Assembly (NCBI GenBank): GCA_951406725.2
Contig: OX597824.1
Location: 36,394,001-36,458,000, forward strand
DNA length: 64,000 bases
Origin: Octopus vulgaris
Taxonomy: Eukaryota
Direction: 5' to 3'
The notes below the pieces were generated by a model. It was not told the origin of the DNA. It saw only the letters and a list, made by a program, of their open reading frames with translations, and searched no databases. The first letter of the stretch is position 1. Each line of letters starts with the position of its first letter. Shown piece after piece: positions 1,040-49,035 of this stretch. Made by a program: the position numbers and the translations under genes.

Positions 1040-1049
1040 TATATAAATA
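1040..1049 (+). promoter_or_regulatory. TATA box of M4 protease copy 1
   Basis: TATATAAATA 85 nt upstream of the ATG at 1125; conserved in copy 2. Confidence 0.6.
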
Positions 1050-1124
1050 AGAGTCAGCAATGATTGAGATACATCTTGAGCTGGTTTTTGAAAAGAGCAT
1101 AGGATTTGTGAATATTACACAATC

Positions 1125-1173
1125 ATGAGGCATTTGATGGTTATATTTTATTCCTGGCATCTCCTATTTGGCA
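1125..1173 (+). CDS. M4 metalloprotease copy 1, exon 1 (N-terminal part of signal peptide)
   Basis: Reads MRHLMVIFYSWHLLFG plus one A, then a GTAAGT donor at 1174. The phase-1 junction joins the acceptor tttttttag|GT at 6385 (codon AGT, Ser), giving MRHLMVIFYSWHLLFGSLLLIKTSDA-AYRV, a plausible signal peptide. Confidence 0.88.
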
Positions 1174-1599
1174 GTAAGTATATTTTCAAGAATTTTTTAT
1201 TATTGAATTTACATGTATTTTATCTTTATATTTTCTGATTATGACAAATTACTTGTTTTCTACATGAAACATTTTATAGAACTTAGGTTTTACTTATGGA
1301 TATTATTTCAATACTTATATGATAGACAGTGGAAACAATGAAGGGTAAAGTTGCTATCACCGTCGAGATATGAACCCAGGTTGTAAATATATGATATTGA
1401 TCATAGCAAAATATGTATTACTCATCTCTAGCATTGCAGTCAGGAGTCTGCTGAGGCACATACACTCAAACACACGTTCGTTCGCTTTATTTTGGTCGCA
1501 CTGCCTTCCAGACGTGCGCCAAAAGTTGGCCCTCTTGTGTTTATGTATCCAAGCTTACTTTGATTGCTCCAGTTTTCTTTCTTGTGTTACAGAGTAAAC

Positions 1600-1720
1600 A
1601 TGGCTGCTCCACTGAAATTGTGCACCAAGGAAGAATAGAGATCTGTGACTTGTTTTTTCTGGTCTAAAGATGTGTTAGGGGCTGAAATTCATTGCAGGCT
1701 TTAGTACGATACAGAGATAT
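1600..1720 (+). mobile_element. Mariner transposase N-terminal remnant in intron (also 24069-24190)
   Basis: Decayed translation MAAPLKLCTKEE*RSV..FFWSKDVLGAEIHCRL matches the mariner N-terminal HTH pattern. Confidence 0.55.
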
Positions 1721-3646
1721 CACTCTACAACTTAGAAGTTCAATAATGGCAAGTCAAGCATGAAGTTTGCTGCCAATGAACATCATTTGAATTTGTAGCA
1801 CCCTCTTTTTTCCTTCATTGAAGTACCTTACAAAAAACAGACCACAAAACTTGTTTGTGACACGATCATATTTTACAAAATTGGCGTTGAATATATCCAC
1901 TTTTCATATATTTTAGCTTTGCCATTATTTTAAACATGTTCCAAACGACACCTTGCTAATTTTGAATATTTGGAATCAAATATGATTTCAGCTGTATTTG
2001 ACTGAATACACTTGTTGCTGATAAATATTGTTGCTTTCTTGCTTGTGTTCTGAGTTTTGTTCTAGACTGCGTTGTATTACTGTCTCTATAATTTTGTACA
2101 ACTGCTTTAAAGTTTGATTAGCTCGGTGAAAAGCTCGGTGAAATCTGCATATTCACTTGTTGATTTTTTTTTTGGTATGGTTCCATATATTATCAATTTG
2201 TTTTAGTTAAGATCGAAATTTTAGAGATCTCTTTTGGTTCTTATAGGATATCTGTGTTTTTGTCTTCCCACATGAGTCAGACTTTGCTGACGTTTTTCTT
2301 CTTTGGATGGTAAATGTGAACATAGAACTAAGTGGGTTTTTTTCATGTGCAAAGAAATATAAAGAAAAGATAAATTGAAAATGCGCTTGAAATTCTTGGA
2401 AAAAAAATATTTTTATTTACTTAAATGGTTTCAAAATGTCATAATTTCTAAATATTCTGTGAACTGGAGAGATGCAGAATTGGAGGTATATTTTTATAAT
2501 AATATACATACATGCATACATACTTATATACATATATGCATAAATACATACATACATACATACATACATACGTACATAAATACATACATATATACGTACA
2601 TACATACATACATCACTGGAACTGTAAAAATCTGTAAAAGTTTTTAGTTTATGATTGAAAAATGACCATATCTAGATATGTAAGTATATGCATGAGAAGG
2701 CATACTTAAAGCAAAAAATACAAATCTGCACGTACGCGTACATACAAACATACAAACATACATACATACATACATACATACATACAAAAATACCCTGTTG
2801 ATGTTGAAGTTCCAATGAAGGAGCCTTGGATGTTGGGTGACAAACACATACACGCAAACATATACACACACATAGCTAAGAGATATAAAATCCGTATGCC
2901 GTCTTCAGTATAATATACCCGAAAAAATATAAATGCAAATATCTTTACATACTCAAACGAATAATACATATTCATACATACATATACATAAATCTGCACG
3001 TATATACAAGTCAAATTTAATTCAATCACCTCAACCACATGCGTTTACGCTCAAAATAATACCCCAGTGAATATAAATTGATCGGAGTAAAACATATATA
3101 TTTATACATGATTAAGGAAAGAATCATTGTAAAGATTTTATCAAGTGGCCAGTGTATAATAAAAACCATATAGGGACAATTAATACTGATATATAATTAT
3201 ACAGATACAATTATAGTAAATGGTTCTGATAAACATCAACACGCTAGAAGTAGACATCAAATAGCTCTAAACTATCTACTACCAGTCAACTTACCGCACC
3301 AAATTCCTTCTTCCTCTCACTCTCTCATATTTTTTCTTCATTCTTCCTTTCTCCCTACATTTATATACCTCTTTCATACTGTACCCTCTACACATTCTGA
3401 TTGAATCTTCTTTGTGTCAAATGGTACCTCCTTGCAACAATATAGCCTTTAATCTAATCAAGATATACTTGGCCTTAAGAGTAGCCCGCGGTATACGCCT
3501 CACTTGGATTTTACCATTTCTGAAATTCCACTTGGAGAAGAGAAGTAACGCGTGCGTTCGGTCATATAGTAATATAATAAATAAAAAAAATATATGCATA
3601 TATACATACATATATGTACATACTTACATCTACATGTATATATACA

Positions 3647-3690
<44 letters not shown>

Positions 3691-3852
3691 TACAGGACCC
3701 CACAAATAAACGTAGAACACAACGAGAGACGAGAATATAAAATCAAACAAAGAAACGGACTTTTTTTAAACAACGAAAAAACAGAGTACAGGACAAACAA
3801 TAAAAGGAAAATTCCCCTTCATCAGCTGTCCCTGGTTCGACTCAAAATGTGT

Positions 3853-3886
<34 letters not shown>

Positions 3887-3904
3887 TGTGTGTGTGTTTG
3901 TGTG

Positions 3905-3942
<38 letters not shown>

Positions 3943-3993
3943 GAGAGAGAGGGGGGCGGAGAGAGGAGAAAGAGATAGATATATACGTATATG

Positions 3994-5194
3994 TACTGGG
4001 TCGGGAAAAAGTTTGTACCAGTTTTTATGTAAAATTCATTAACAATACTTAGATTGTTGTACACACCTTTACTCAACCACATACTTGCCAATTTGTTCCA
4101 CTACTTTTCGTCATCTTTGAAGCAGCATCATGATCCCATCCTCCCAGAGCTTAGCATTTTCCTGGGTCAATGACTGGTCTAAGTGGCTATTATAAATGAT
4201 AATCCGAAGGTGCAAGGTCAGGTAAGTACGATGTGTAGGGCAGGACATCCAACCCAAACTGCACCAATTTCTGCCTGGTCTCCAAAGAAACGTGTGGTCT
4301 AGCGTTGTCCCTTTTGGTTGGCCAATTCTGAACGTTTTTCATCAATTGCCACCTTTAAACAGTCTAATTGGGAACAATAATAGTCTGAATTTAACGTCTG
4401 ATTTTGTGGAAGTAGCTCATAATACACAGTACCCTTCCAATCCCACCAGATACAGAGCATCACCTTCTTCGGATACAGACCAGTTTTGGAGAAATTGAAG
4501 GTGGTTCATCTCGTTTTCACCAGGACCTCTTTCGTTTTATGTTGTTGTAAATAATCCATTTCTCATCACACGTGACTACTCATTTCCAAAATGTATCAAT
4601 TTTGTTTCCTCAGATTAGAGAACCGTAGATGGAAATGCGCTCGATTAAATATTTTTCTGTTAAGCTTTGAGGCACCCAAACATCGTAGCAATTCATATAA
4701 CCAAGTGTTTTTAAATATTTTATAACGCTCGCATGAGATACGTGGATAATCTCTGCGATGTCTCGTACTGTGTAACATAGGTTATTGTATTTTCATAAAA
4801 GTCTCAATTTGTTCATTATCAACGACTGTAGGCCTGCCAGAAAGTTCACGATTTCCAGGTCAAAATTTTTGGTTATAAACCTAGCGAACGACTTACAGAG
4901 AGTAGTTTCAGATATAACACCATCTCCGTAAACAGCGCATATCTTCTTTGCTGTTTGTCCAGCGTTTTTGCCTCCCCGGAAACGAAAGAGCGTTAAATGA
5001 GGAATATGAATTTCATGCTCTTTCTTTTTCAATTTTATCGTAAGAACAGTAGAAGTAAATAATCCGCACAAATTTAAAACTGCAAAATGCGTTGAGATCC
5101 ACTTTTCTAGAAAATATACTAGTCATTTTCTGTCACGTGATAAAACATATCACCTATTGAAGAACGCGACGAACTTTTTTACCAACCCAATGTA
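3994..5194 (-). mobile_element. Decayed near-full-length mariner element in M4 intron
   Basis: Imperfect TIRs (TActgggtcgggaaaaagtt / aactttttt-accaacccaatgTA). ORF 4793-5071 (GKNAGQTAKKICAVYGDGVISETTLCKSFARF) is a mariner HTH region. Confidence 0.85.
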
Positions 5195-5487
5195 TGAATA
5201 TTTGTATCCATATATTTGTATGTATATGTATATAGATCTGGGTGTGTGGGTATACTTTTCATGTGATAATGTATACACATATTTTCACTGATAGATCTAA
5301 TTACAGTTTCTTTGCATCTATGTGTACCTTTCCTTATAAAGCCTTAACATTAATGTTATTTCAAGGGAGTGGGGCCTTGAATGTCATTCCTTTCACACAT
5401 GTGTTTATCTTCTCACTGCTAATGCTTTTGGATGTATATGCATAAATGTAGATGTTTCTTCCCAAATAAATTTCACTTCATATTTCA

Positions 5488-5568
5488 GGCTCTGATGAAG
5501 CAATGTTTGTTTCGCAGGAACTCAACTATGAGTCTACATCATCTTACTGCAGAAACAGTTGTACAGTA
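5488..5568 (+). ncRNA. Degenerate hammerhead-ribozyme-like motif in intron (also about 28224-28308)
   Basis: CTGATGA(5492)...GAAAC-AGTT-GTA(5552-5563); stems I and II are imperfect. Confidence 0.3.
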
Positions 5569-6384
5569 ATGACGTTCACAATACAATTGTTTATCACTCT
5601 GTCGTCTGATTTTCGATACTCTGACGATTAGTGGAGCCTGGGCTGATAGCTGAACATACAAATTCGTCGCAGAAAAAGGTGTCACAGTAATTTAACTTAC
5701 CTGTGGATACAGGGAAGAATGACTTTAGAAATCTAAGAGAAAGATGTCATTGCTAGGAATAATGGATTTACTGACATAAATCTTACATACCTTTGTTGAG
5801 ATCAATGGCTCGGGAAGTGAATTTCTTGGGAACAGAATATAAAACTTAACTCACTTTATGCATCAAGTGCCATTTATTATTTATGCCGTGGTGTACACAT
5901 GTAAATGAGTTACAATAGAATCTTTATAGAAAACATTTGTAATGTGTTTGGAATTGTTCACTTTTATGTTCTGTTGAAATAATACATAACCGATGTGCAG
6001 ACCTTAGTTAACTTGTAGTTTCCAGATACTGATCGTTGTTTTACTAAAAGAACACTCGCTTCCATTCGCTTAAAACTAATCACTCCTTGTAACAAATCAC
6101 CTCCCTATTTCATCAAATATTAAATTAACTGCATGAACAAACTGAATATCTCTTTGGATGAATTTATTCGCACTAAAATAGGTTAGACTGATGTAATTTT
6201 TTTTTATTGGGCAATATATATTATATTATAAGCTCATATTTCTATTAATTTGAATTGTTAAATAATTTAATTCTTTGTTGTTCCGTCACTATGTTTGTAT
6301 GTATTGTTAAAAAATTAGTCTTTTTTAAAAAAAAATTCTGATGGTTCTGTTATTAATAATTGTAATGTTTTCTTTTTTTTTTAG

Positions 6385-8305
6385 GTTTGTTACTGATAAA
6401 GACATCTGATGCAGCTTATCGTGTTGATGCCCATGAAAGAGCAAGGAGGATGATTTATCATCCCTCAGCTCCGTTTCAGCGGCGTCATTTAGATAAAGCT
6501 GAAGTAACAGTCAGAGATCTTCTTGGTTTGAAGGAGTATGAAGAAGTTGAAGAGTCAAACCGTATCAAAACAGTTGAAGGCACAGAAGTTTTACGCTTAC
6601 AAGAGAAGTTCTTAGGTGTTCCTGTTTTTGATGCTTCATTAACTGTTACAGAAGATAAAGATGGACATTTGACTGGTGATGCAACAGGAACATTTATTCA
6701 AGGAATTGAAGATGATATTACAAATGTAAAACCAAAGCTTTCCAAATCAGATGTCTTTGATATTGCTTTTAAAGCAGAGGGAGATGAGATTTACGCAAAT
6801 AGTATCGAACCAGAATATGAAATTATGATTTTCATGGATGAAAATGACAAACCTCGATTAGTATACAATATTAATTATCGAATAGAAAATGAAATAGTTA
6901 TTAAACGGCCTACATTTGTCATTGATGGTAACACTGGAGAAATACTGTTGAAATATAACAATTTAGATACAATTTCCAGAGTACTGACTGGTTCCGGCGG
7001 TAATGAAAAATCAGGAATATACAAATTTAGTGAGAAAAATCACAAAGCTTTTGTAACTCAAATTGGTGACATGTGTTTCCTTGAAAACAATTATGTAAAG
7101 GTTATAGACATGAAAAACAGTTTTGAGGCAGACTCTAATAATACAGATCCTATGTATTATCTTTGTGACGTTGGTTTTAATGATAGTGTCAATGCAGCGT
7201 CATCTCCAGCACTTGATGCTTTCTATTACGGCAGTGTAGTATCTCAAATGTTTCAGGAATGGTATAATACTTCAATACTAAACGAACAAGCTATATTGCG
7301 TGTTCACTTTGGAGAAGATTTTGAAAACGCATTTTGGGATGGGACATATTGCACATTTGGTGATGGCTATAAATACTTTTATCCTTTAACAGATGCTGAT
7401 ATTATCGGGCATGAACTTGCCCATGGCTTCACAGAACAACACTCTGGATTGCTTTACTTTAATCAGTCTGGATCTATGAATGAGGCTTTTTCTGATATGA
7501 CTGGAGAGGTCACTGAAGCTTATGCAAGTGGGAATGACTGGTTAATTGGCTTCAACATCATGAAAGATGAGGAAGCATTGAGATTTATGGCAGACCCATC
7601 CCTGGACAATATATCTATAAGTCATGTAGATAACTTCACAGAAAATATGAATCCCCATCATGGAAGTGGTATTTATAATTTTATTTTTTACTACATTGTG
7701 CAGGAATTAAATATGGATATCAAGGAAGCTTATCGAGTTTTCCTTATTGCCAATGAAATATATTGGCATCCTCATACAGATTTCACTTCAGGGGCTTGTG
7801 ATACTTTGAAGGTTGCCTATGATCTTGGGAAAGATCTAACCCCTTTATTAAAGCCTATGAACTTGTGGGAATTAAACCATGTGATGTAGAGAAACATATT
7901 CGAGGATTGCCATTTAACAAAACAGTCTCAGGTATCACAGTGTCAGTTAAAACAAACCCAGTCTTTGATTTTGTTTATCCAAGCTGGGCTGGGAATATTA
8001 CAATTACTGCCACTAGTATGTGTGGCAAAGTTCATATTAAGGTATCAAAGAGCAATATGATAACAGAGGAAGAAGGTTCAGATGGTTCAGATCTAGTTAC
8101 ATTATTAGCTGAAGGCACATCAGAATTGAATTTGGGGAAGCCTGAAGGACATAAGTTCTTTGTCAAATTATCTCCAGAATCTACTGAAAATTTACAGGAT
8201 GTTAGTATACGTGTTACTTATGGCTGTGATCCAGATTATGTTGGAGAGTCATATATGAGTTATATAGTTCAAATGATGATTTGTAATGAAGATTATGGGT
8301 ATTAA
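6385..8305 (+). pseudogene. M4 (pseudolysin/vibriolysin-like) metalloprotease copy 1, exon 2; frameshifted near 7841 (pseudogene or sequence error)
   Basis: ORFs 6387-7889 and 7865-8305 together align to the single 634-aa ORF of copy 2. HELAH at 7410-7424, GSMNEAFSD and PHHGSGIYN are present. The C-run has 4 C (7840-7843) versus 5 C in copy 2 (30598-30602). Confidence 0.9.
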
Positions 8306-17330: not shown

Positions 17331-18032
17331 GGACAATAATTTATAAAAACAATAAAATAATAAAAAAACAATAAATAATATAAAAGACGTTATAGCACGT
17401 AGGGAAAGGAATGAAAAAAAGGGAAGGAAGAAATAAGAAATAAAAAAAAGTTGCTTGTTGCGGTAGGTGGAGCGCAGTCACTAAGAGGAGGGGCTGTGTT
17501 GAGTCCGTGCGGGGTATTAGTCTGTAAAGTGAATATGAACCGTTGCTCCAAGTGAAGCCTGGATTGTGGAGGACCGTTGTGTGGGGCGAGACCAAACACA
17601 GAGATGTCATCGGGGAATGGCTGGCCGAGCAGAAGTGGCGTGCGACGGGAGAATTGGAACGCAGCCGAACACCCCTTAGATGTTCGGCGAATTGTTCGAC
17701 CAACCGGCGTCCCGTCTGTCCTACATACAGCATCCCGCAGAGGGTGCATTTTATGCAATATATGAGACCAGACGAAGTGCACGTAAATGAATGTCTAATA
17801 CGTACAAGGATTAAATCTTCATAAGAAATTATCAAGTAGTTAGCGTGAAAAATCCCATAAGAGAAAAAATCTGTAAATTTTTTCACTTGAATATATTTAT
17901 TTATATTATATAGAGGGCATTATTACACATAAATGCCGCACGCTAGGAGGAACTCTTAAAGTCAAAACTACCAAAATAAACATATCGTACCGAATGCAAG
18001 TCTCGAAGCAAGTCATTTAAAAACAGAATTTA

Positions 18033-21589: not shown

Positions 21590-22841
21590 CTCCAGAGGCA
21601 TAAAATTCGAGCCAGTTTCCGCGTCACAGCTCCGTAAATAAGAGTTCCAGTCTGCTTTATTCCAGTCAAATCGGGCAGTTTGAAGACAGTTGTGGTTTTT
21701 GTTACAACCAGAGACAAGTCGGCCATGATCATGGAATGATCAGAGTCACCTAAAGGTTCTTCAGTAGTGACACTAATAATTGTTTCAGGAGAAGCGGTAA
21801 ATAGCAGATCTAAAGAGATGTTACCCCTTGTAGGGGAGTTAACGACTTGAGACCAATTTCAATTCCGCACCAGTTCAAGGAAATCGTCTGCACTTTGCGG
21901 CCAACGGAAGGCCTCTCAGTCAATCTCAGGAAAATTGAAGTTCCCCGCAATATAAACATAAGTGGCTGTTTTCATGGCAGCAACTCTGAGGATATCAAAA
22001 TGTTGTGTGTCTTGATGATAATTTGGGAGACGGTAAACAACTCCGAGTAGAAGTGTTGACATGGTCATGTGTATATTGCAGAAAAATACTTCCTGTTGAG
22101 ATTGGTTCAAATCATCACAAGGAATTGCCGATAGATTTGAACGAACGTAAACCATCACACCCCCACCACGGCGATTAATGCGGTCTTTGCGGAACAGGTT
22201 GTAGCCGGCTATGCTGAAAACCCCATCACAGAGTGCAGAGTGTGCCCATGTTTCCGTGACTGTGATGCAATCTTGGTCGATACTTTTGACGTAAGAGTAA
22301 AAAAGATGTACTTTGTTGCATAAACTACGGGCATTTAAAGACAACAGTTTGTATCTGGATTTCAGATGACGATGATATACAGGGGATGGCTGATTGTTCT
22401 TGTTTAGTTTTCCATGATTTTTGTATTGCCAGTTATTGTGGGTGCAGTATGTTCAGACCAACTGATATCCCTTATCCACGACTCACCAGACTTGACGAAT
22501 TTCCATATTCCCATCGTCGCGTAGGCTAAAGCTTTCCTGTGGCACAGAGTTGCGATTTAGGGAAGCTACAGATCTTAGCTTTGAAAGAACGTACATCAGT
22601 TGGTAGGCCAGGACGTGTCCGAAAGGTAATTCTGTTTTCGCGCCGAGCCCTATCAGCGGCTAGATGGTATGCCCGCGCCTCAGTAGAGTTCGAAAACAAC
22701 AGCTTAATCAATCTGGGTTTGGATCCTGGTCGGTCAAAGCGGAAAGCACTTTTTGGAGGAACACAGCTTAGGTCTTTAGATGTGTTGCCAGTAAATGCCT
22801 GTAGATCTACCACATCTTCCGATAGAATCCCATTTCTATGA
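21590..22841 (-). mobile_element. CR1/L2-like LINE fragment (ORF1 end plus APE endonuclease)
   Basis: ORF 21916-22344: SLNARSLCNK..ITVTETW..GYNLFRKDR..RGGGVMVYV..GVVYR..GNFNFP, the APE-type endonuclease motifs. Confidence 0.85.
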
Positions 22842-23508: not shown

Positions 23509-23518
23509 TATATAAATA
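23509..23518 (+). promoter_or_regulatory. TATA box of M4 protease copy 2
   Basis: TATATAAATA 85 nt upstream of ATG 23594. Confidence 0.6.
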
Positions 23519-23593
23519 AGAGTCAGCAATGATTGAGATACATCTTGAGCTGGTTTTTGAAAAGAGCATAGGATTTGTGAATATTACACAATC

Positions 23594-23642
23594 ATGAGGC
23601 ATTTGATGGTTATATTTTATTCCTGGCATCTCCTATTTGGCA
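23594..23642 (+). CDS. M4 metalloprotease copy 2, exon 1 (signal peptide)
   Basis: Identical to 1125-1173, with GTAAGT donor at 23643 and a phase-1 join to the acceptor at 29142/29143. Confidence 0.88.
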
Positions 23643-25027
23643 GTAAGTATATTTTCAAGAATTTTTTATTATTGAATTTACATGTATTTTATCTTTATAT
23701 TTTCTGATTATGACAAATTACTTGTTTTCTACATGAAACATTTTATAGAACTTAGGTTTTACTTATGGATATTATTTCAATACTTATATGATAGACAGTG
23801 GAAAAAATGAAGGGTAAAGTTGCTATCACCGTCGAGATATGAACCCAGGTTGTAAATATATGATATTGATCACAGCAAAATATGTATTACTCATCTCTAG
23901 CATTGCAGTCAGGAGTCTGCTGAGGCACATACACTCAAACACACGCTCGTTCGCTTTATTTTGGTCGCACTGCCTTCCAGACGTGTGCCAAAAGTTGGCC
24001 CTCTTGTGTTTATGTAACCAAGCTTACTTTGATTGCTCCAGTTTTCTTTCTTGTGTTACAGAGTAAACATGGCTGCTCCACTGAAATTGTGCACCAAGGA
24101 AGAATAGAGATCTGTGACTTGTTTTTTCTGGTCTGAAGATGTGTTAGGGACTGAAATTCATTGCAGGCTTTAGTACGATACAGAGATATCACTCTACAAC
24201 TTAAAGTTCAATAATGGCAAGTCAAGCATGAACTTTGCTGCCAATGAACATCATTTGAATTTGTAGCACCCTCTTTTTTCCTTCATTGAAGTACCTTACA
24301 AAAAACAGACCACAAAACTTGTTTGTGACACGATCATATTTTACAAAATTGGCGTTGAATAAATCCACTTTTCATATATTTTAGCTTTGCCATTATTTTA
24401 AACATGTTCCAAACGACATCTTGCTAATTTTGAATATTTGGAATCAAATATGATTTCAGCTGTATTTGACTGAATACACTTGTTGCTGATAAATATTGTT
24501 GCTTTCTTGCTTTTGTTTTGAGTTTTGTTCTAGACTGCGTTGTCTCTATAATTTTGCACAACTGCTTTAAAGTTTGATTAGCACGGTGAAAAACTCGGTG
24601 AAATCTGCATATTCACTTGTTGATTTTTTTTGGTATGGTTCCATATATTATCAATTTATTTTAGTTAAGATCGAAATCTTAGAGATCTCTTTTGGTTTTT
24701 GTAGGATATCTGTGTTTTTGTCTTCCCACATGAGTCAGACTTTGCTGACGTTTTTGTTCTTTGGATGGTTGTGTTTTTTTTTTCATGTGCAAATAAATAT
24801 AAAGAAAAGATAAATTGAAAATGCGCTTGAAATTCTTGGAAAAAAAATTTTTTATTTACTTAAATGGTTTCAAAATTTCATAATTTCTAAATATTCTGTG
24901 AACTGGAGAGATGCAGAATTGGAGGTATATTTTTATAATAATATACATACATGCATACATACTTATATACATATATGCATAAATACATACATACATACAT
25001 ACATACATACATACATACATACATACA

Positions 25028-25061
<34 letters not shown>

Positions 25062-25968
25062 CGTACATACATACATACATACATCACTGGAACTGTAAAA
25101 ATCTGTAAAATTTTTTAGTTTATGATTGAAAAATGACCATATCTAGATATGTAAGTATATGCATGAGAAGGCATACATAAAGCAAAAAATACAAATCTGC
25201 ACGTACGCGTACATACAAACATACATACATACATACATACATACATACATACATACATACATACATACATACATACATACATACAAAAATACCCTGTTGA
25301 TGTTGAAGTTCCAATGAAGGAGCCTTGGATGTTGGGGGACAAACACATACACGCAAACATATACACACACATAGCTAAGAGATATAAAATCCGTATGCCG
25401 TCTTCAGTATAATATACCCGAAAAAATATAAATGCAAATATCTTTACATACTCAAACGAATAATACATATTCATACATACATATACATAAATCTGCACGT
25501 ATATACAAGTCAAATTTAATTCAATCACCTCAACCACATGCGTTTACGCTCAAAATAATACCCCAGTGAATATAAATTGATCGGAGTAAAACATATATAT
25601 TTATACATGATTAAGGAAGGAATCATTGTAAAGATTTTATCAAGTGGCCAGTGTATAATAAAAACCATATAGGGACAATTAATACTGATATATAATTATA
25701 CAGATACAATTATAGTAAATAGTTCTGATAAACATCAACACGCTAGAAGTAGACATCAAATAGCTCTAAACTATCTACTACCAGTCAACTTACCGCACCG
25801 AATTCCTTCTTCCTCTCACTCTCTCTCCTATTTTTTCTTCATTCTTCCCTTCTCCCTACATTTATATACCTCTTTCATACTGTACCCTCTACACATTCTA
25901 ATTGAATCCTCTTTGTGTCAAATGGTACCTCCTTGCAACAATATAACCTTTAATCTAATCAAGATATA

Positions 25969-26057
25969 CTCGGCCAGAAGAGTAGCCCGCGGTATACGCC
26001 TCACTTGGATTTTACCATTTCTGAAATTCCACTGGCTATGAAACATATGTAGCTGGG
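25969..26057 (+). ncRNA. Type-I hammerhead motif with one core mutation, in M4 copy 2 intron
   Basis: CTCGGC-CAGAAGA-GTAGCC...GGCTAT-GAAAC-ATAT-GTA-GCTGGG. Stems I and II pair over 6 bp each and stem III is the palindrome ACATATGT. Confidence 0.7.
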
Positions 26058-26082
26058 ATTTTTCCTACTCCATTCCATAACT

Positions 26083-26199
<117 letters not shown>

Positions 26200-26496
26200 T
26201 GGAGAAGAGAAGTAACGCGTGCGTTCGGTCATATAGTAATATAATAAATAAATAAAATATATGCATATATACATACATATATGTACATACTTACATCTAC
26301 ATGTATATATACATGCATATATATATATATATATATATGAGTACAGGACCCCACAAATAAACGTAGAACACAACGAGAGACGAGACTATAAAATCAAACA
26401 AGGAAACGGACTTTTTTTAAACAACGAAAAAAACAGAGTACAGGACAAACAATACAGGGAAAATTCCCCTTCATCAGCTGTCCCTGGTTCGACTCA

Positions 26497-26601
<105 letters not shown>

Positions 26602-26613
26602 TGTGTTTGTGTG

Positions 26614-26669
<56 letters not shown>

Positions 26670-26732
26670 GAGAGAGAGAGAGAGAGAGAGGGGGGCGGAG
26701 AGAGGAGAAAGAGATAGATATATACGTATATG

Positions 26733-27930
26733 TACTGGGTCGGGAAAAAGTTTGTACCAGTTTTTATGTAAAATTCATTAATAATACTTAGATAGTTGTA
26801 CACACCTTTACTCAACCACATACTTGCCAATTTGTTCCACTACTTTTCGTCATCTTTGAGGCAGCATCATGATCCCATCCTTCCAGAGCTTACCATTTTC
26901 CTGGGTCAATGACTGGTCTAAGTGGCTATTATGAATGATAATCCGAAGGTGCAAGGTCAGGTGAGTACGATGTGTAGGGCAGGACATCCAACCCAAACTG
27001 CACCAATTTCTGCCTGGTCTGCAAAGAAACGTGTGGTCTAGCGTTGTCCCTTTTGGTTGGCCAATTCTGAACGTTTTTCATCAATTGCCAACTTTAAACA
27101 GTCTAATTGGGAACAATAATAGTCTGAATTTAACGTCTGATTTTGTGGAAGTAGCTCATAATACACAGTATCCTTCCAATCCCACCAGATACAGCGCATC
27201 ACCTTCTTCGGATACAGACCAGTTTGGGAGAAATTGAAGGTGGTTCATCTCGTTTTCACCAGGACCTCTTTCGTTTTATGTTGTAAATAATCCATTTCTC
27301 ATCACACGTGACTACTCTTTTCCAAAATGTATCAATTTTGTTTCCTCAGATTAGAGAACCGTAGATGGAAATGCGCTCGATTAAATATTTTTCTGTTAAG
27401 CTTTGAGGCACCCAAACATCGTAGCAATTCATATAACCAAGTGTTTTTAAATATTTTATAACGCTCGCATGAGATACGTGGATAATCTCTGCGATGTCTC
27501 GTACTGTGTAACATAGGTTATTGTATTTTCATAAAAGTCTCAATTTGTTCATTATCAACGACTGTAGGCCTGCCAGAAAGTTCACGATTTCCAGGTCAAA
27601 ATTTTTGGTTATAAACCTAGCGAACGACTTACAGAGAGTAGTTTCAGATATAACACCATCTCCGTAAACAGCGGATATCTTCTTTGCTGTTTGTCCAGCG
27701 TTTTTGCCTCCCCGGAAACGAAAGAGCGTTAAATGAGGAATATGTATTTCATGCCCTTTCTTTTTCAATTTTATCGTAAGAACAGTAGAAGTAAATAATC
27801 CGCACAAAATTCAAATAGCAAAATGCGTTGAGATCCACTTTTCTAGAAAATATACTCGTCATTTTCTGTCACGTGATAAAACATATCACCTATTGAAGAA
27901 CGCGACGAACTTTTTTACCAACCCAATGTA
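26733..27930 (-). mobile_element. Decayed mariner element (duplicate of 3994-5194)
   Basis: Same TIRs and transposase remnant (ORF 27529-27807). Confidence 0.85.
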
Positions 27931-29142
27931 TGAATATTTGTATCCATATATTTGTATGTATATGTATATAGATCTGGGTGTGTGGGTATACTTTTCATGT
28001 GATAATGTATACACATATTTTCACTGATAGATCTAATTACAGTTTCTTTGCATCTAAGTGTACCTTTCCTTATAAAGCCTTAACATTAATGTTATTTCAA
28101 GGGAGTGGGGCCTTGAATTTCATTCCCTTCACACATTTGTTTGTCTTCTCACTGATAATGCTTTTGGGTGTATATGCATAAATGTAGATGTTTCTTCCCA
28201 AATAAATTTCACTTCATATATCAGGCTCTGATGAAGCAATGAGGTGTTTGTTTCGCAGGAACTCAACTATGAGTCTACATCATTTTACTGCAGAAACAGT
28301 TGTACAGTAATGACGTTCACAATACAATTGTTTATCACTCTGTCGTCTGATTTTTGATACTCTGACGATTAGTGGAGCCTGGGCTGATAGCTGAACATAC
28401 AAATTCGTCGCAGAAAAAGGTGTCACAGTAATTTAACTTACCTGTGGATACAGGGAAGAATGACTTTAGGAATCTAAGGGAAAGATGTCATTGTTAGGAA
28501 TAATGGGTTTAGTGACCTAAATCTTACATACCTTTGTTGAGATCAATGGCTCGGGAAGTGAATTTCTGGGGAACAGAATGTAATACTTAACTCAATTTAT
28601 GCATCAAATGCCATTTATAATTTATGCAGTGGTGTACACATGTAAATGAGTTACAATAGAATCTTTATAGAAAATATTTGTAATGTGTTTAGAATTGTTC
28701 AACTTTTCTCATGTTCTGTTGAAATATTACATAAACGATGTGCAGACCTTAGTTAACTTGTAGTTTCCAGATACTGATTGTTGTTTTACTAAAAGGACAC
28801 TCGCTTCCATTCACTTAAAACTAATCACTCCTTGTAACAAATCACCTCCCTATTTTATCAAATATTAAATTAACTGCATGAACACACTGAATTTCTCTTT
28901 GGATGAATTTATTCACACTAAAATAGGTTAAACTGATGTAATTTTTTTTATTGGACAATATATTTGAAATTGTAAGCTCATATTTGAGCTTATATTGCTA
29001 ATTTAATTCTTTTTTAAATAGATACAGACCTATGTCTGTTGTTCAGTCACTATGTTTGTATGTATTGTTAAAAAATTAGTCTTCTTTTAAAAAAATTCTG
29101 ATGTTGCTGTTATTAATGATTGTAATGTTTTCATTTTTTTAG

Positions 29143-31049
29143 GTTTGTTACTGATAAAGACATCTGATGCAGCTTATCGTGTTGATGCCCATGAAAGAGC
29201 AAGGAGGATGATTTATCATCCCTCAGCTCCGTTTCAGCGGCGTCATTTAGATAAAGCTGAAGTAACAGTCAGAGATCTTCTTGGTTTGAAGGAGTATGAA
29301 GAAGTTGAAGAGTCAAACCGTATCAAAACAGTTGAAGGCACAGAAGTTTTACGCTTACAAGAGAAGTTCTTAGGTGTTCCTGTTTTTGATGCTTCATTAA
29401 CTGTTACAGAAGATAAAGATGGACATTTGACTGGTGATGCAACAGGAACATTTATTCAAGGAATTGAAGATGATATTACAAATGTAAAACCAAAGCTTTC
29501 CAAATCAGATGTCTTTGATATTGCTTTTAAAGCAGAGGGAGATGAGATTTACGCAAATAGTATCGAACCAGAATATGAAATTATGATTTTCATGGATGAA
29601 AATGACAAACCTCGATTAACATACTATATTAATTATAGAATAGAAAATGAAATAGTTATTAAACGGCCTACATTTGTCATTGATGGTAACACTGGAGAAA
29701 TACTGTTGAAATATAACAATTTAGATACAATTTCCAGAGTATTGACTGGTTCCGGCGGTAATGAAAAATCAGGAATATACAAATTTAGTGACAAAAATTA
29801 CAAAGCTTTTGTAACTCAAATTGGTGAAATGTGCTTCCTGGAAAATAACTATGTGAAGGTTATAGACATGAAAAACAGTTTTAATGAAGTCTCTAATAAT
29901 ACAGATCCTATGTATTATCTTTGTGACGTTGGTTTTAATGATAGTGTCAATGCAGCGATATCTCCAGCACTTGATGCTTTCTATTACGGCAGTGTAGTAT
30001 CTCAAATGTTTCAGGAATGGTATAACACTTCAATACTAAACGAACAAGCTATATTGCGTGTTCACTTTGGAGTATATTTTGATAACGCATATTGGGATGG
30101 GAAATATTGCACATTTGGTGATGGCTATAAAAACTTTTATCCTTTTACAGTTGCTGATATTATCGGGCATGAACTTGCCCATGGCTTCACACAACAACAC
30201 TCTAGATTGCTTTACTTTGATCAGTCTGGATCTATGAATGAGGCTTTTTCTGATATGACTGGAGAGGTCACTGAAGCTTATGCAAGTGGGAATGACTGGT
30301 TTATTGGCTTCAACCTCATGAAAAATGAGGAAGCATTGAGATTTATGGCAGACCCATCCTTGGACAATATATCTATAAGTCATGTAGATAACTACACTGA
30401 AAACACGGATCCTCATCATGGAAGTGGGATTTATAATTTTATTTTTTACTACATTGTACACGAATTAAAAATGGATATCAAGGAAGCTTATCGAGTTTTC
30501 CTTATTGCCAATGAAATATATTGGCATCCTCTCTCAAATTTCACTTCCGGAGCTTGTGATACGTTGAAAGTTGCCTATGATCTTGGGAAAGATCTAACCC
30601 CCTTTATTAAAGCCTATGAACTTGTGGGAATTAAACCATGTGATGTAGAGAAATATATTCGAGGATTGCCATTTAACAAAACAGTCTCAGGTATTACAGT
30701 GTCAGTTAAAACAAACCCAGTCTTTTATTTTGTTTATCCAAGCTGGGCTGGGAATATTACAATTACTGCCACTAGTATGTGTGGCAAAGTTCATATTAAG
30801 GTATCAACGAATAATATGCTAGCAGAGGGAGATGGTTCAGATTCAGTTACATTATTAGCTGAAGGCACATCAGAACTGAATTTGGGGAAGCCTGAAGGAC
30901 ATAATTTCTTTGTCAAATTATCTTCAGAATCTACTGAAAATTTACAGGATGTTAGTATACGTGTTAATTATCGCTGTGATCCAGATTTTGATGGAGAGAC
31001 ATTTCTAGATGATTTCTTTCACGAGTTGATTTGTGATAAAAAAATGTAA
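29143..31049 (+). CDS. M4 (pseudolysin/vibriolysin-like) zinc metalloprotease copy 2, exon 2; full protein 651 aa
   Basis: Polypyrimidine-AG acceptor at 29142 and FTP/PepSY-like propeptide. Mature domain GSGGNEKSG, VHFG..FDNAYWDG...FGDG...FYP, HELAH (30168-30182), QSGSMNEAFSD, ALRFM, DPHHGSGIYN, SGAC..VGIKPC. PPC-like C-terminal domain; TAA at 31047-31049. Confidence 0.95.
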
Positions 31050-39770: not shown

Positions 39771-42700
39771 TACGCACATAAATTCTTCCGCTTCACGCCA
39801 ACTTCAAAAGAACTTCACTCATACAATCGTGCTCTCTCTGTCTCTTTCGCTTTCACGCCGACTTCAAAGAGTGAAGGAGTAAAAAACAAGATATTTTCAC
39901 TTGTCCGGGCATTGCTATTACAGACAAATTAACAACAATTCGACTCAAGAGATAAACACAAACCACCCCGTGCTAACTGCAAAAATCCCGCCAAATTAGC
40001 CGGAAAAACACACACACGTCCATTTCATATATCTTCTTTCAATTTCTGCTCTCTGATTACACATATGTCCTATACAATAGTTCTCAGCTACATTTTCTTC
40101 TCTAAAGTGTCTATTTTTTCTGTAAGCGTATAACAATGACTTCTATACTTCTCCACTTAGCTTTTATCTTCACTTTTCTTAAATTGGATATGTCTGCTAT
40201 TAAGTTGCAGAACTTTAGCAGTACAGTTAAAAATCATTTCTGCTTTACTTCTTACATACAATTTGCCTGTAAATTCTTACAACTTCATTTTTTGGTGATG
40301 ACTGAAATGTTAAACATTTTCTAACTGTTAAAGCAATTCTTAACGTCAACTTCTTAATGCCTCTTTTATTTTTTTCCTAGCACCCATACTTACCAAGATC
40401 GATTAAAACTTCTCATGAAATTCCCTCTTTGTTTCCCCATTAAAACAACCAGTTGCTCACACAGCCGCCATATAACAAGGGGCCTATAGGGTGACAGTCA
40501 GCCCAAACTTTCCTTATGCTGTCTCTCTTCTTTCACCTCTTTGTGGGGTTAACTATCTTCATCTTTAGTTACAGTTTCTCATTCAAACTACATAATACGC
40601 AGAATTGTCAGATTAATACAGTAAGGTGTTTTGAGGGAGATTTTGCTGCTATTTCTACCAGATCTACCTACCATGTAGACGTCTGAACTTAATTTTCATT
40701 CACAGATTTGCATTTCAAAAATTTCACATAATCTTTTTCCATAAATCAACTATCGTAAAAATGTTCTAACATGACCTTACATTTTTTATGTATGTGTGTA
40801 TACCTTAAAAGACGTTATTAGACAGAGGTCCAATAGAATAGTTCTCAGAAACAGACTACGTAAAAATTCTTTCATCAGAACTCCTGAAGCTGTTTTTTGC
40901 GAAGATATTTTCACTTGTCCGGGCATTGCTATTACAGACAAATTAACAACAATTTGACTCGAGAGATAAACACAAACCACCTCGTGCTGACTGCAAAAAT
41001 CCCGCCAAATTAGCCGAAAAACACACACACACACACATACACACGCATGTCCATTTCATATGCCTTCTTTCAATTTCTGCTTTCTTGGATGCTCCCGGCG
41101 GAACCGGAAAAACTTTTCTCATGAACCTCCTGCTCGCCACAATTCGCCAGGAAAATCAGATTGCCATAGCGGTTGCATCAAGCGGCATTGCGGCAACTCT
41201 ACTGCATGGCTGTCGTACGGCACACTCAGCCTTCAAATTACCACTAGACTTGACCAAACAGGAAAATCCAACTTGCAATGTTAGTCGTGGCTCAGCCATG
41301 GGGAATCTCACTGAGTGCAGCCTTATAATTTGGTATGAGGCAACCATGTATCATAAGGCGGCTTTTGAGGCGCTCGATCGGTCTCTTCAAGACCTAAGAC
41401 GCAATATGAGAGTGATGGGTTGAGTGACTGTTCTGCTTGCTGGCGACTTCTGACAAACTCTACCAGTCATTCCATGGGGGACAAGAGCTGACGAGGTAAA
41501 TGCTTCCATAAAATCATCCTACTAATGGCACCACACCGAGAAACTTCACCTGACTACGAACATGAAAGTTCACGTGCATGGCGACGAAAACGCGGCCACA
41601 TTCTCGGCACAGCTTCTCGACGTTGGTAATGGAACTGCAGCTAGTGATACTGATGGTTCCATCCATTTACTATCTGGCAACTTTGTGCCTACCGTGGATG
41701 ATTTGATTCCTTCAGTTTTTTCTGACATTGCATACCAAAGCCTTGACACAACTTACCTACAAGGAAGAGCAATTTTGGTGCCTGACAATAAAACAGTCGA
41801 CGCTATCAATAATAAACTTCTCGATATGCTTCCTGTAGAAAAACTCTCCCTTCAAAACCATTGGCATGCATGAAAACCCGGATGATACGACCGTTTTCAC
41901 AACAGAATTCCTTAATTCCTAAACGCACGCAGGACTTCCGCCTCACGAACTCCATCTTAAAGTTGGCGCGCCCATCATGCTGCTGCGGAATTTCGATGCT
42001 CCAATAATGTGTAACGGCACGCGGATGATAATCAAAAAATTATACTCCCGAGTTCTGCAGGCAACTATCTTGAATGGACCAGCTGCTGGTCAAGATGTTC
42101 TTATAACTCCAATGTCCGTCACTCCCTCCGATACGATCTACAAGTTTAAGCGGCTCCAATTTCCTATCAAACTCTGCTTTGCAATGTCAATAAATAAGGC
42201 ACAGAGTCAATCATTGCAAATGATTGGTTTAAATCTCACAGAGCAAGTGTTCTCCCACGGTCAACTTTACGTTGGATGCTCTCGTGTTGGCAGACCACAA
42301 AGTCTATACTTTGTACATCAGAAGGGAAAAAGAGAAACGTTGCCTACAAAGAAGCGCTCCACTGAAAAGACGGCATTTCTTCACATCTTTCAAATCATCC
42401 CAGTCTGCCGCCTCAAAAGCTTCGTCTTCGCCATGCCAGCCAACGTAACTCAATGACACACACCTTCACTCACTTGCTCTATCTCACCCTCTTTCTCTCT
42501 CTTACATACACACACACAAGCACGCACGCACACACACACACACGTCCATTTCACATAGCTTCTTTAAATTTTTGCTCTCTGCAAATAAATTTTTACGGAT
42601 ACAACTGCTTACAAAAATAGGGGTTAATGTATAATTTCTTTCTATGTTCATAGTTAAATAAATGTTTTAATAATTAGACAGAGGTGGTTTGTAAGTGATT

Positions 42701-47774: not shown

Positions 47775-49035
47775 TACCAGGTTGAGTCAAAAGTTCTTTT
47801 GGATTTTCATTCATAATTTCTGGTAACTCATATCTCCATGTTATATCATTAATTTGATACAACCTGTTCATTCATTGCTGAATTGTTTATTCTTTATTCT
47901 CATATATAAAATGTGAACAATAATTGTTTATTCTTTATTTTACAGCTTTGATAATATGTGGTGAAAAAAAATTGGAATAAGAGCCATTTTACACTACCTG
48001 TGAAAAACGGACTGAATGCATAGGCAGTGGCAAAAGAAATTAATGATGTGGAAGGCCCAAGAAGTGTCAACAAACATGTGGTTCAAAACTGGTTCAGATA
48101 TTTCAAGAAAGATGACAACAGCTTCAAAGACAAATCACGGTCAGGACGACCTTCTGTTGTGGAGGATGAGGCCTTATCTGTAATGGGTGGACAGTCAAGC
48201 ACAAGTACTCATACATTGTTGATAGAACTTGCTCCTTCACAAAACACCATCAATTGACACCTCCATAAGCTCAGCCTTGTGAATAGACACTATCAATATA
48301 CTTCTTGTGAACTGACCAATGATCTGCTCAATGATACGTAAAAATTTGCAAACAACTGCTAATAAATCCTCAAGATGCCTGTTTTTGGTGTTGAAATGCA
48401 ATGGGGATGAAAATTGGATCTATTTTCATAATCTTAATAAGAAAAATCAGTGGCTTCACTCTGATAACACTTCAGAACCAGTTGTCAAACAAGGGTCATT
48501 TGAACAGAAGGCCTTGTTGTATGTTTTGGTGGAATCTCAGTCAGGTGTTACATTTTGGGCTTGTCCCAGATTATCATGCTGTAAACACTAACCTTTATGA
48601 CCAACAACTGCAACAAGTATATGATGCTTTGAAAGCCCTCTACCTGGCATTGAGCAATCAAAGATATGCACACCTACAGCATGACACAACCTCATCACAT
48701 ACTGCTAATGTAACCAAGAGCAGACTTGAGGAAGTTGGGGGGCTGGAAGTGCTACTTTACCCTGTCTACAGTCCAGATTCTGCACCATCAGATTACCACC
48801 TTTTCTGAGCCATAGCTCATTTCCTGGATGGACGGAGGTTCAACAATGTGGATGAGGTTTATTTCCAAACCAATGAAATTGTACACGTATGGAATTGAGT
48901 TTCTGGTTCAAAGATGGCAAGAGACAATAGAATATGATGGAATATATTTTGATGGATAAATGCTTTTCCTAAGTACTTTGATTGAACTATTAATTAAAGC
49001 TTGAAATATGAGAAAACTTCTAACTCAATCTGATA
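47775..49035 (+). mobile_element. Decayed mariner element
   Basis: TA-flanked imperfect TIRs (ccaggttgagtcaaaagtt / aacttctaactcaatctga). Fragments VVQNWFRYFK..RSGRP, GDENWIYF and YSPDSAPSDYHLF. Confidence 0.9.

Follow-up and report, generated by a model that had tools for sequence, protein, structure and literature searches.

The stretch analyzed here is a 64,000-nucleotide window of the Octopus vulgaris genome, and its subject is a spliced gene on the + strand (all coordinates are those of the whole window) whose product is, by its sequence, a member of the M4 peptidase family of the type of Pseudomonas aeruginosa elastase (LasB) and the vibriolysins. Joining 23594‒23642 to 29143‒31049 yields a single open frame of 651 residues, with 49 coding bases in exon 1, 1,907 in exon 2, and a phase-1 intron of 5,500 bases with GT and AG ends. 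The gene comprises the following features.

23509..23516, + strand: TATA box, TATATAAA, with the furthest 5′ contig end 31 bases downstream; also kept in the twin gene at 1040
23540..23642, + strand: exon 1, with the 5′ untranslated region from about 23540 and coding bases 23594‒23642 (16 codons plus 1 base, encoding the start of the predicted signal peptide); X5, X6, and X8 contigs
23643..29142, + strand: phase-1 GT-AG intron (5,500 bases) containing microsatellites along with some interspersed repeats; contig junctions
29143..31049, + strand: coding part of exon 2, with no further intron; open frame, contigs from 29143, X1 contig at 30043‒30181

The gene was compared with sequencing runs X1, X5, X6, and X8, which are presumed to be RNA (no run is recorded as RNA), and the exon 1 and exon 2 sides were mapped separately because of a repeat in the intron. 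Contigs start at 29143 in all four runs and carry loose ends of the exon-1 type, whose letters are those of exon 1 of this window in X5, X6, and X8 and those of a paralogue's exon 1 in X1. From the other side, X5, X6, and X8 contigs cover exon 1 up to the donor, beyond which their letters are those of exon 2. The junction 23642/29143, which the first-pass annotation proposed to check, is thus crossed from both sides in three runs, and its gene model (a 49-nucleotide coding exon, a 5.5-kb GT-AG intron, and a 1.9-kb exon encoding 651 residues) is confirmed by contigs that join at the exact sites. The last 680 bases of the intron have zero contig cover in the runs compared. A single X6 contig crosses the splice join with 0 differences and fits a tandem twin of the gene, at 1040‒8305, equally well; an X1 contig of 139 bases is identical to this copy at 30043‒30181, a stretch in which the closest paralogues show 8 differences.

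The predicted TATA box is borne out by its distance from the furthest 5′ contig end (23540). Since the + strand of the window contains 25 motifs of this type, its weight rests on position and not on the motif, and the contig that defines 23540 carries the letters of a neighboring paralogue. Exon 1 spans at least 103 bases, so that the 49 bases proposed as the whole exon are its coding portion only. The leader of one X1 contig is 293 bases long, and alternative first exons in the array are possible. The GC content at third codon positions is 26%, which is host-like. An Octopus sinensis protein (P0001, 651 residues) shares 99% identity and the same splice join, and close matches to named O. vulgaris proteins are present in the source genome. 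The gene is a spliced, transcribed octopus gene.

The layout of the product and of its coding sequence is as follows.

29172..29729, + strand: propeptide, residues ~27‒212, FTP and PepSY; Pfam, with sequence and fold matches to the MCP-02 propeptide (3nqy_A/3nqz_A); boundaries estimated from the LasB alignment
29730..30641, + strand: M4 catalytic domain, residues 213‒516; HExxH at 30168‒30182, third zinc ligand E383 at 30240, R416, H441, and Y374
within 29730..30641, + strand: catalytic-domain disulfide pairs C247‒C277 and C488‒C516; four Cys kept in the alignment to LasB
30657..30977, + strand: putative degenerate PPC (pre-peptidase C-terminal) β-sandwich, residues ~522‒628; HHalign and Foldseek
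30978..31049, + strand: C-terminal helix between C628 and C647, from models, with a putative disulfide; the most variable part among paralogues

Pfam profiles identify Peptidase_M4 (E 5e-22, 79 bits against a cut-off of 22.4) and M4_C (E 1e-25, 91 bits against 24.4), together with a weak M36 score (E 0.017). Among solved structures, the closest in sequence are LasB precursors (E 1e-82), followed by ProA (4e-62), vibriolysin MCP-02 (6e-57), and thermolysin (7e-27), and the protealysin match is weaker (3e-19). The fold search agrees with this ranking and places vibriolysin, ProA, and LasB at the top. The structure model (predicted local distance difference test 78, predicted template modeling score 0.84) indicates a thermolysin-like fold and superposes best on vibriolysin and LasB chains, with template modeling scores of 0.82‒0.85 (root mean square deviation of 2.3 Å for the best matches, in the vibriolysin group), although the model may lean on these known structures. 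The propeptide matches the MCP-02 propeptide fold with an E value of 3e-12. The active-site set H359, E360, H363, E383, Y374, R416, and H441, which we take to be the zinc ligands and catalytic helpers, corresponds to H140, E141, H144, E164, Y155, R198, and H223 of LasB (numbering from the alignment). Equivalents of the LasB calcium ligands and of both disulfide pairs are also found, and the motif likeness to LasB and vibriolysin seen in the first reading holds at every zinc, catalytic, and disulfide residue. The zinc ligands, the catalytic Glu, and the equivalents of Arg198 and His223 are conserved in all 17 aligned rows, and Tyr155 in 16 of 17. The N-terminus is the most hydrophobic stretch of the protein, and residues ~1‒26 are a predicted signal peptide. 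These features predict a secreted zinc endopeptidase.

The remaining part of the layout, FTP-PepSY-M4-PPC, stands with qualification: FTP exceeds the Pfam cut-off (E 8e-5) and PepSY falls below it (0.009), while a Pfam search of the tail gives no PPC match. A profile of the tail family aligned to 20 bacterial PPC tails by HHalign reaches 93% probability (E 2.7e-7; reversed control, 0.8%), and alignment to lineage B of the family reaches 98%. For the tail's own model, the best Foldseek match is the PPC domain 5sv5 (E 6.5e-5), followed by clostridial collagen-binding domains, and other β-sandwiches score close behind. Judged by these profiles and models, the tail is a degenerate PPC domain.

Compared with LasB (PDB 1ezm), the catalytic domain is ~39% identical, with the FTP-PepSY propeptide in common. 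LasB lacks a PPC domain, whereas the octopus protein carries the degenerate PPC and the Cys-bracketed helix; the octopus gene also differs in its intron, in 8 N-glycosylation sequons (potential sites only), and in Phe/Ile/Leu at the positions of L132/V137/I190. The vibriolysin group (MCP-02 3nqx, V. cholerae HapA, E495, and Legionella ProA) shares the order signal-FTP-PepSY-M4-PPC and contains the best fold matches. On the other hand, the octopus PPC shows only ~11% identity in the profile match, the lineage that holds this gene lacks the typical bacterial motif, and the protein lies far under the ProA equivalog cut-off (289 against 900 bits). Fungalysin (M36) and fungal protealysin-like M4 are also eukaryotic enzymes of the thermolysin fold, but belong to different subgroups.

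The gene is the last copy of a head-to-tail array of ~120 kb made up of five genes together with a fragment and orphan first exons. The repeat unit of 22.4 kb places a tandem twin, absent from the first-pass annotation, in the same window.

1040..8305, + strand: tandem twin; TATA at 1040, coding exon 1 at 1125‒1173, exon 2 at 6385‒8305, frame break near 7839

Besides the frame break, exon 2 of the twin differs at 3 of 1,920 bases from L002, the next upstream copy, and by its sequence the twin appears to be a very recent copy that is either a pseudogene or an assembly error. A search of the octopus genome gave 13 matches from 20 scored candidates. Nine carry a full-length open frame for the catalytic domain; the others are the broken twin, another broken locus that matched as two pieces, and a fragment. 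The open copies in the genome number at least nine and belong to three lineages. Further copies lie elsewhere on contig C11, on C3 (53% identity), and on C28 and C29 (35‒37%); blastn over 20 kb beyond either end of the array revealed no additional copies. In the C11, C3, and C29 genes and in one C28 gene, 49 coding bases up to a phase-1 donor precede a single long coding exon; no first exon could be placed for L008. The phase-1 signal-peptide intron is common to all three octopus lineages, in line with the single leader intron first proposed. Within the array are also orphan first-exon/promoter copies (G000:C11:36304397, 36333048, and 36367936) and the exon-2 fragment L013. L003 stops before the final Cys-bracketed helix, and the first exon of L005 is shortened to ~28 coding bases, so its signal peptide may be weakened. 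L011/L012 on C9 of the same genome (G000:C9) is a broken lineage-B copy like L009.

The ratio of nonsynonymous to synonymous substitution rates (dN/dS) of the catalytic domain is 0.21‒0.56 in all 15 paralogue pairs, and the catalytic domains are under purifying selection. In the C-terminus, one of ten pairs, that with L002, exceeds 1 (dN/dS 2.5; Fisher p 0.047‒0.115, uncorrected), a borderline value that does not establish positive selection; the last 107 bases differ from L002 at 20 positions. Synonymous differences from L002 are uneven, at 2 of 131 sites in the propeptide and 18 of 198 in the catalytic domain (Fisher p 0.004), a pattern suggestive of gene conversion or a mosaic copy. Substrate-pocket positions vary among the copies, most in L006 (G000:C11:36352253-36353194), where LasB positions 112, 113, 132, and 197 are changed and the zinc site is intact; a different specificity of L006 is therefore probable.

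The survey of protein relatives covered the best 150 of 2,052 strong matches, 30 proteins were looked up by name, and trees were built from 39‒78 chosen rows, with 219 rows in one FastTree run. A second profile search added no relatives to the first. Named relatives occur in Polyplacophora (the chiton Liolophura), Gastropoda (the limpet Patella, the abalones Haliotis, and the apple snail Pomacea), Bivalvia (Solemya, Pecten, Ylistrum, Ruditapes, Tegillarca, Pinctada, and Ostrea), and Cephalopoda (Argonauta and Sepia), as the first-pass annotation allowed in its caveat that the transfer could be old and shared with other molluscs; its domestication in a cephalopod is not supported, since the clade spans the molluscs. 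The same clade contains the mollusc genes named elastase-like, neutral protease-like, or hemagglutinin-proteinase-like, including the Haliotis discus hannai metalloprotease AJF36072.1; these automatic names, among which P0001 is the named orthologue of our gene, are similarity transfers. Lineage A, which holds this gene, is supported at 99/96, A+C at 100/99, and lineage B (octopus, cuttlefish, and an oyster cluster) at 100/99; A+B+C reaches 96/87, and A+B without C 98/97. The lineage C proteins P0237, P0245, and P0233 have long Thr-rich inserts between the propeptide and the catalytic domain. Since all named members of A+B+C among the relatives looked up are molluscs, and the bivalve and cephalopod members group by class, descent appears vertical after acquisition. 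In free trees, the mollusc clade sits among bacteria of the LasB/vibriolysin/ProA type, nearest a Legionella-like group, and the protein's nearest clusters in the ESM Atlas are 98‒100% bacterial. Outside this clade, P0361, an M4 protein that carries two ShK domains, clusters with V. cholerae HapA (99/98); its common origin with the rest is rejected (p 0.010, in a test picked after the tree was seen), and P0361 probably reflects an independent second transfer, into another animal.

We favor, with a probability of about 0.62, a single transfer from a bacterium into an animal no later than the origin of molluscs, followed by vertical descent and duplication, of a secreted zinc endopeptidase that likely serves extracellular protein breakdown in the gut or its glands. 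The parts of this reading that concern bacterial transfer and enzyme identity are together very probable. The transfer is placed at or before the mollusc origin, and not in cephalopods, because relatives occur in chitons, snails, clams, and cuttlefish. An intronless signal-FTP-PepSY-M4-PPC gene would have been transferred from a bacterium, would have gained one phase-1 intron early in its leader, and would have duplicated into lineages A/C and B before the bivalve/cephalopod split; recent tandem growth in Octopus would then have homogenized the propeptides while the substrate pockets diverged. The gene has what is expected of a host gene: a place on a host chromosome, a spliceosomal intron, transcripts (presumed RNA), purifying selection, and orthologues in relatives. 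Several observations weigh against this interpretation. The relatives come from the best 150 matches, and other eukaryotes may lie outside them; A+B+C support is 89/72 in another sampling; and approximately unbiased (AU) tests leave animals outside all sampled bacteria unrejected (p 0.115 and 0.264). The nearest bacteria also vary. The proposed horizontal acquisition stands as most likely bacterial, nested among bacteria in free trees, but a specifically marine gammaproteobacterial donor is not sustained (AU p 0.12 and 0.26), and a sister position is not rejected. Groups D and E, discussed below, are without phylum assignment, with a single label, from a transcriptome of the apicomplexan Siedleckia. 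None of the contigs compared joins the splice junction to a copy-unique part of the gene, the tissues of the runs are coded, and their RNA nature is presumed. The one protein-level trace of the family is a propeptide-derived peptide from octopus ink, common to the C11 genes and not copy-specific, seen as one spectrum in one of three samples in the available part of the PMC10142993 supplement.

A transfer of the same enzyme that is older or wider, in Lophotrochozoa or earlier, and was inherited by molluscs stands at about even odds. Groups D and E, ~20 proteins that are animal-like by eye and have the same animal-type motif after the signal peptide, adjoin the mollusc clade (92/90; 86/50) and may push the date of transfer earlier; some members have intact PPC domains and short branches, and the Siedleckia label may be carry-over from its host, which we take to be a polychaete. 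The support is weak, however, none of the members carries the name of an annelid or of another phylum, and long-branch attraction may play a part. P0235, P0242, P0258, P0281, and P0265 are animal-like, slowly evolving M4s, three of them with a Pfam-detectable PPC, and may be a link to the bacterial ancestor. Vertical descent from an early eukaryote, with the gene lost in most lineages, is unlikely: the AU tests permit the animal clade as sister to all sampled bacteria of the LasB/vibriolysin subgroup, and the sampled matches include one protist label, but no named eukaryote other than molluscs and Siedleckia appears among the relatives looked up, the gene retains the full domain order of the bacterial subgroup with a single intron, and the accessible part of PMC7851659 describes family M4 as almost exclusively bacterial. 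Bacterial contamination or a recent cephalopod-specific transfer, which the bacterial-like sequence and the long intronless exon could suggest, is refuted because the clade is mollusc-wide, and we give it virtually no credence; the contigs are spliced, tandem copies lie among host repeats on a 100-Mb contig, and identity is ~35% to the best bacteria against 35‒41% to non-cephalopod molluscs, which share the tail.

By analogy with LasB and vibriolysin, the signal peptide would send the protein to the endoplasmic reticulum, the propeptide would aid folding and block the active site, self-cleavage near residues 212/213 would release the catalytic domain, and a zinc-bound water would cut before bulky hydrophobic residues. 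The PPC-like domain would hold large protein substrates, as the E495 PPC domain binds protein substrates according to the accessible text of PMC3327674. We tentatively prefer a role in digestion, outside cells and within the gut or its glands, a choice that falls slightly short of even, and count ink, a gut-connected secretion, toward it. A role of the same enzyme in tissue remodeling, hatching, or mucosal defense is a serious but weaker candidate: the family is retained across every animal feeding type, including Solemya, the ink samples include funnel-organ mucus (in the part of PMC10142993 available), the PPC-like domain resembles collagen-binding domains, and pocket divergence among paralogues fits varied targets, but no trace of the family appears in the searchable portion of the supplement to a skin-mucus proteome (PMC10138644). 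A salivary or venom component recruited in octopods, which would explain the tandem array and was suggested in the first reading, is improbable. Array growth is recent, metalloproteases of unstated family are reported in octopus posterior salivary glands (accessible part of PMC7693380), and the L002 pair has the raised C-terminal ratio; however, this ratio is the borderline one of ten, the searchable part of the PMC7693380 gland proteome supplement contains neither an M4 name nor a peptide motif, the family goes unmentioned in the available parts of two other papers on the gland (PMC12607849 and PMC7656900), and filter feeders and grazers possess it as well.

Microsatellites and interspersed repeats, judged against ~225 kb of comparison DNA, cover ~1.7 of the 5.5 kb of the intron, and its description as full of transposons was overstated; a mariner-like fragment, the only intron fragment tested, had no Pfam match. 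Elsewhere in the window, Pfam identifies fragments of host mobile elements, with a GIY-YIG (weak) at 17341‒17919, an endonuclease at 21916‒22452, and a mariner transposase at 48395‒48808, as well as Helitron-like PIF1 helicase fragments at 40947‒42456.

Our literature search, with most subscription journals outside its scope, found no paper on the molluscan M4 family or its origin, and no study of the origin or function of the automatically annotated mollusc M4 genes; a literature match for Peptidase_M4, PMC2868825, actually concerns M41/M48. The deposited abalone metalloprotease may hint at an earlier cloning study. Mollusc M4 genes are already annotated automatically, and the family is older and broader than domestication in a cephalopod implies. 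A wider proposal, to which we assign a little less than an even chance, is that animals captured vibriolysin-type proteases at least twice: once at the mollusc base or earlier, perhaps in Lophotrochozoa, founding an undescribed multi-lineage secreted family that is still expanding in octopuses with altered pockets, and separately elsewhere in a form fused to ShK. The mollusc classes are more than 500 million years old. If the transfer is real, this phylum-wide animal branch would rank among the older cases in which animals acquired a secreted enzyme by transfer, kept under purifying selection for more than 500 million years. An animal M4 branch also means that matches in mollusc tissue to "elastase" or "virulence metalloprotease", and M4-type activity, need not be those of Vibrio, a caution that bears on studies of shellfish disease and digestion. 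M4 proteases are pursued as antibacterial targets, and the paralogues of the octopus array could serve as a natural series in which to study M4 specificity.

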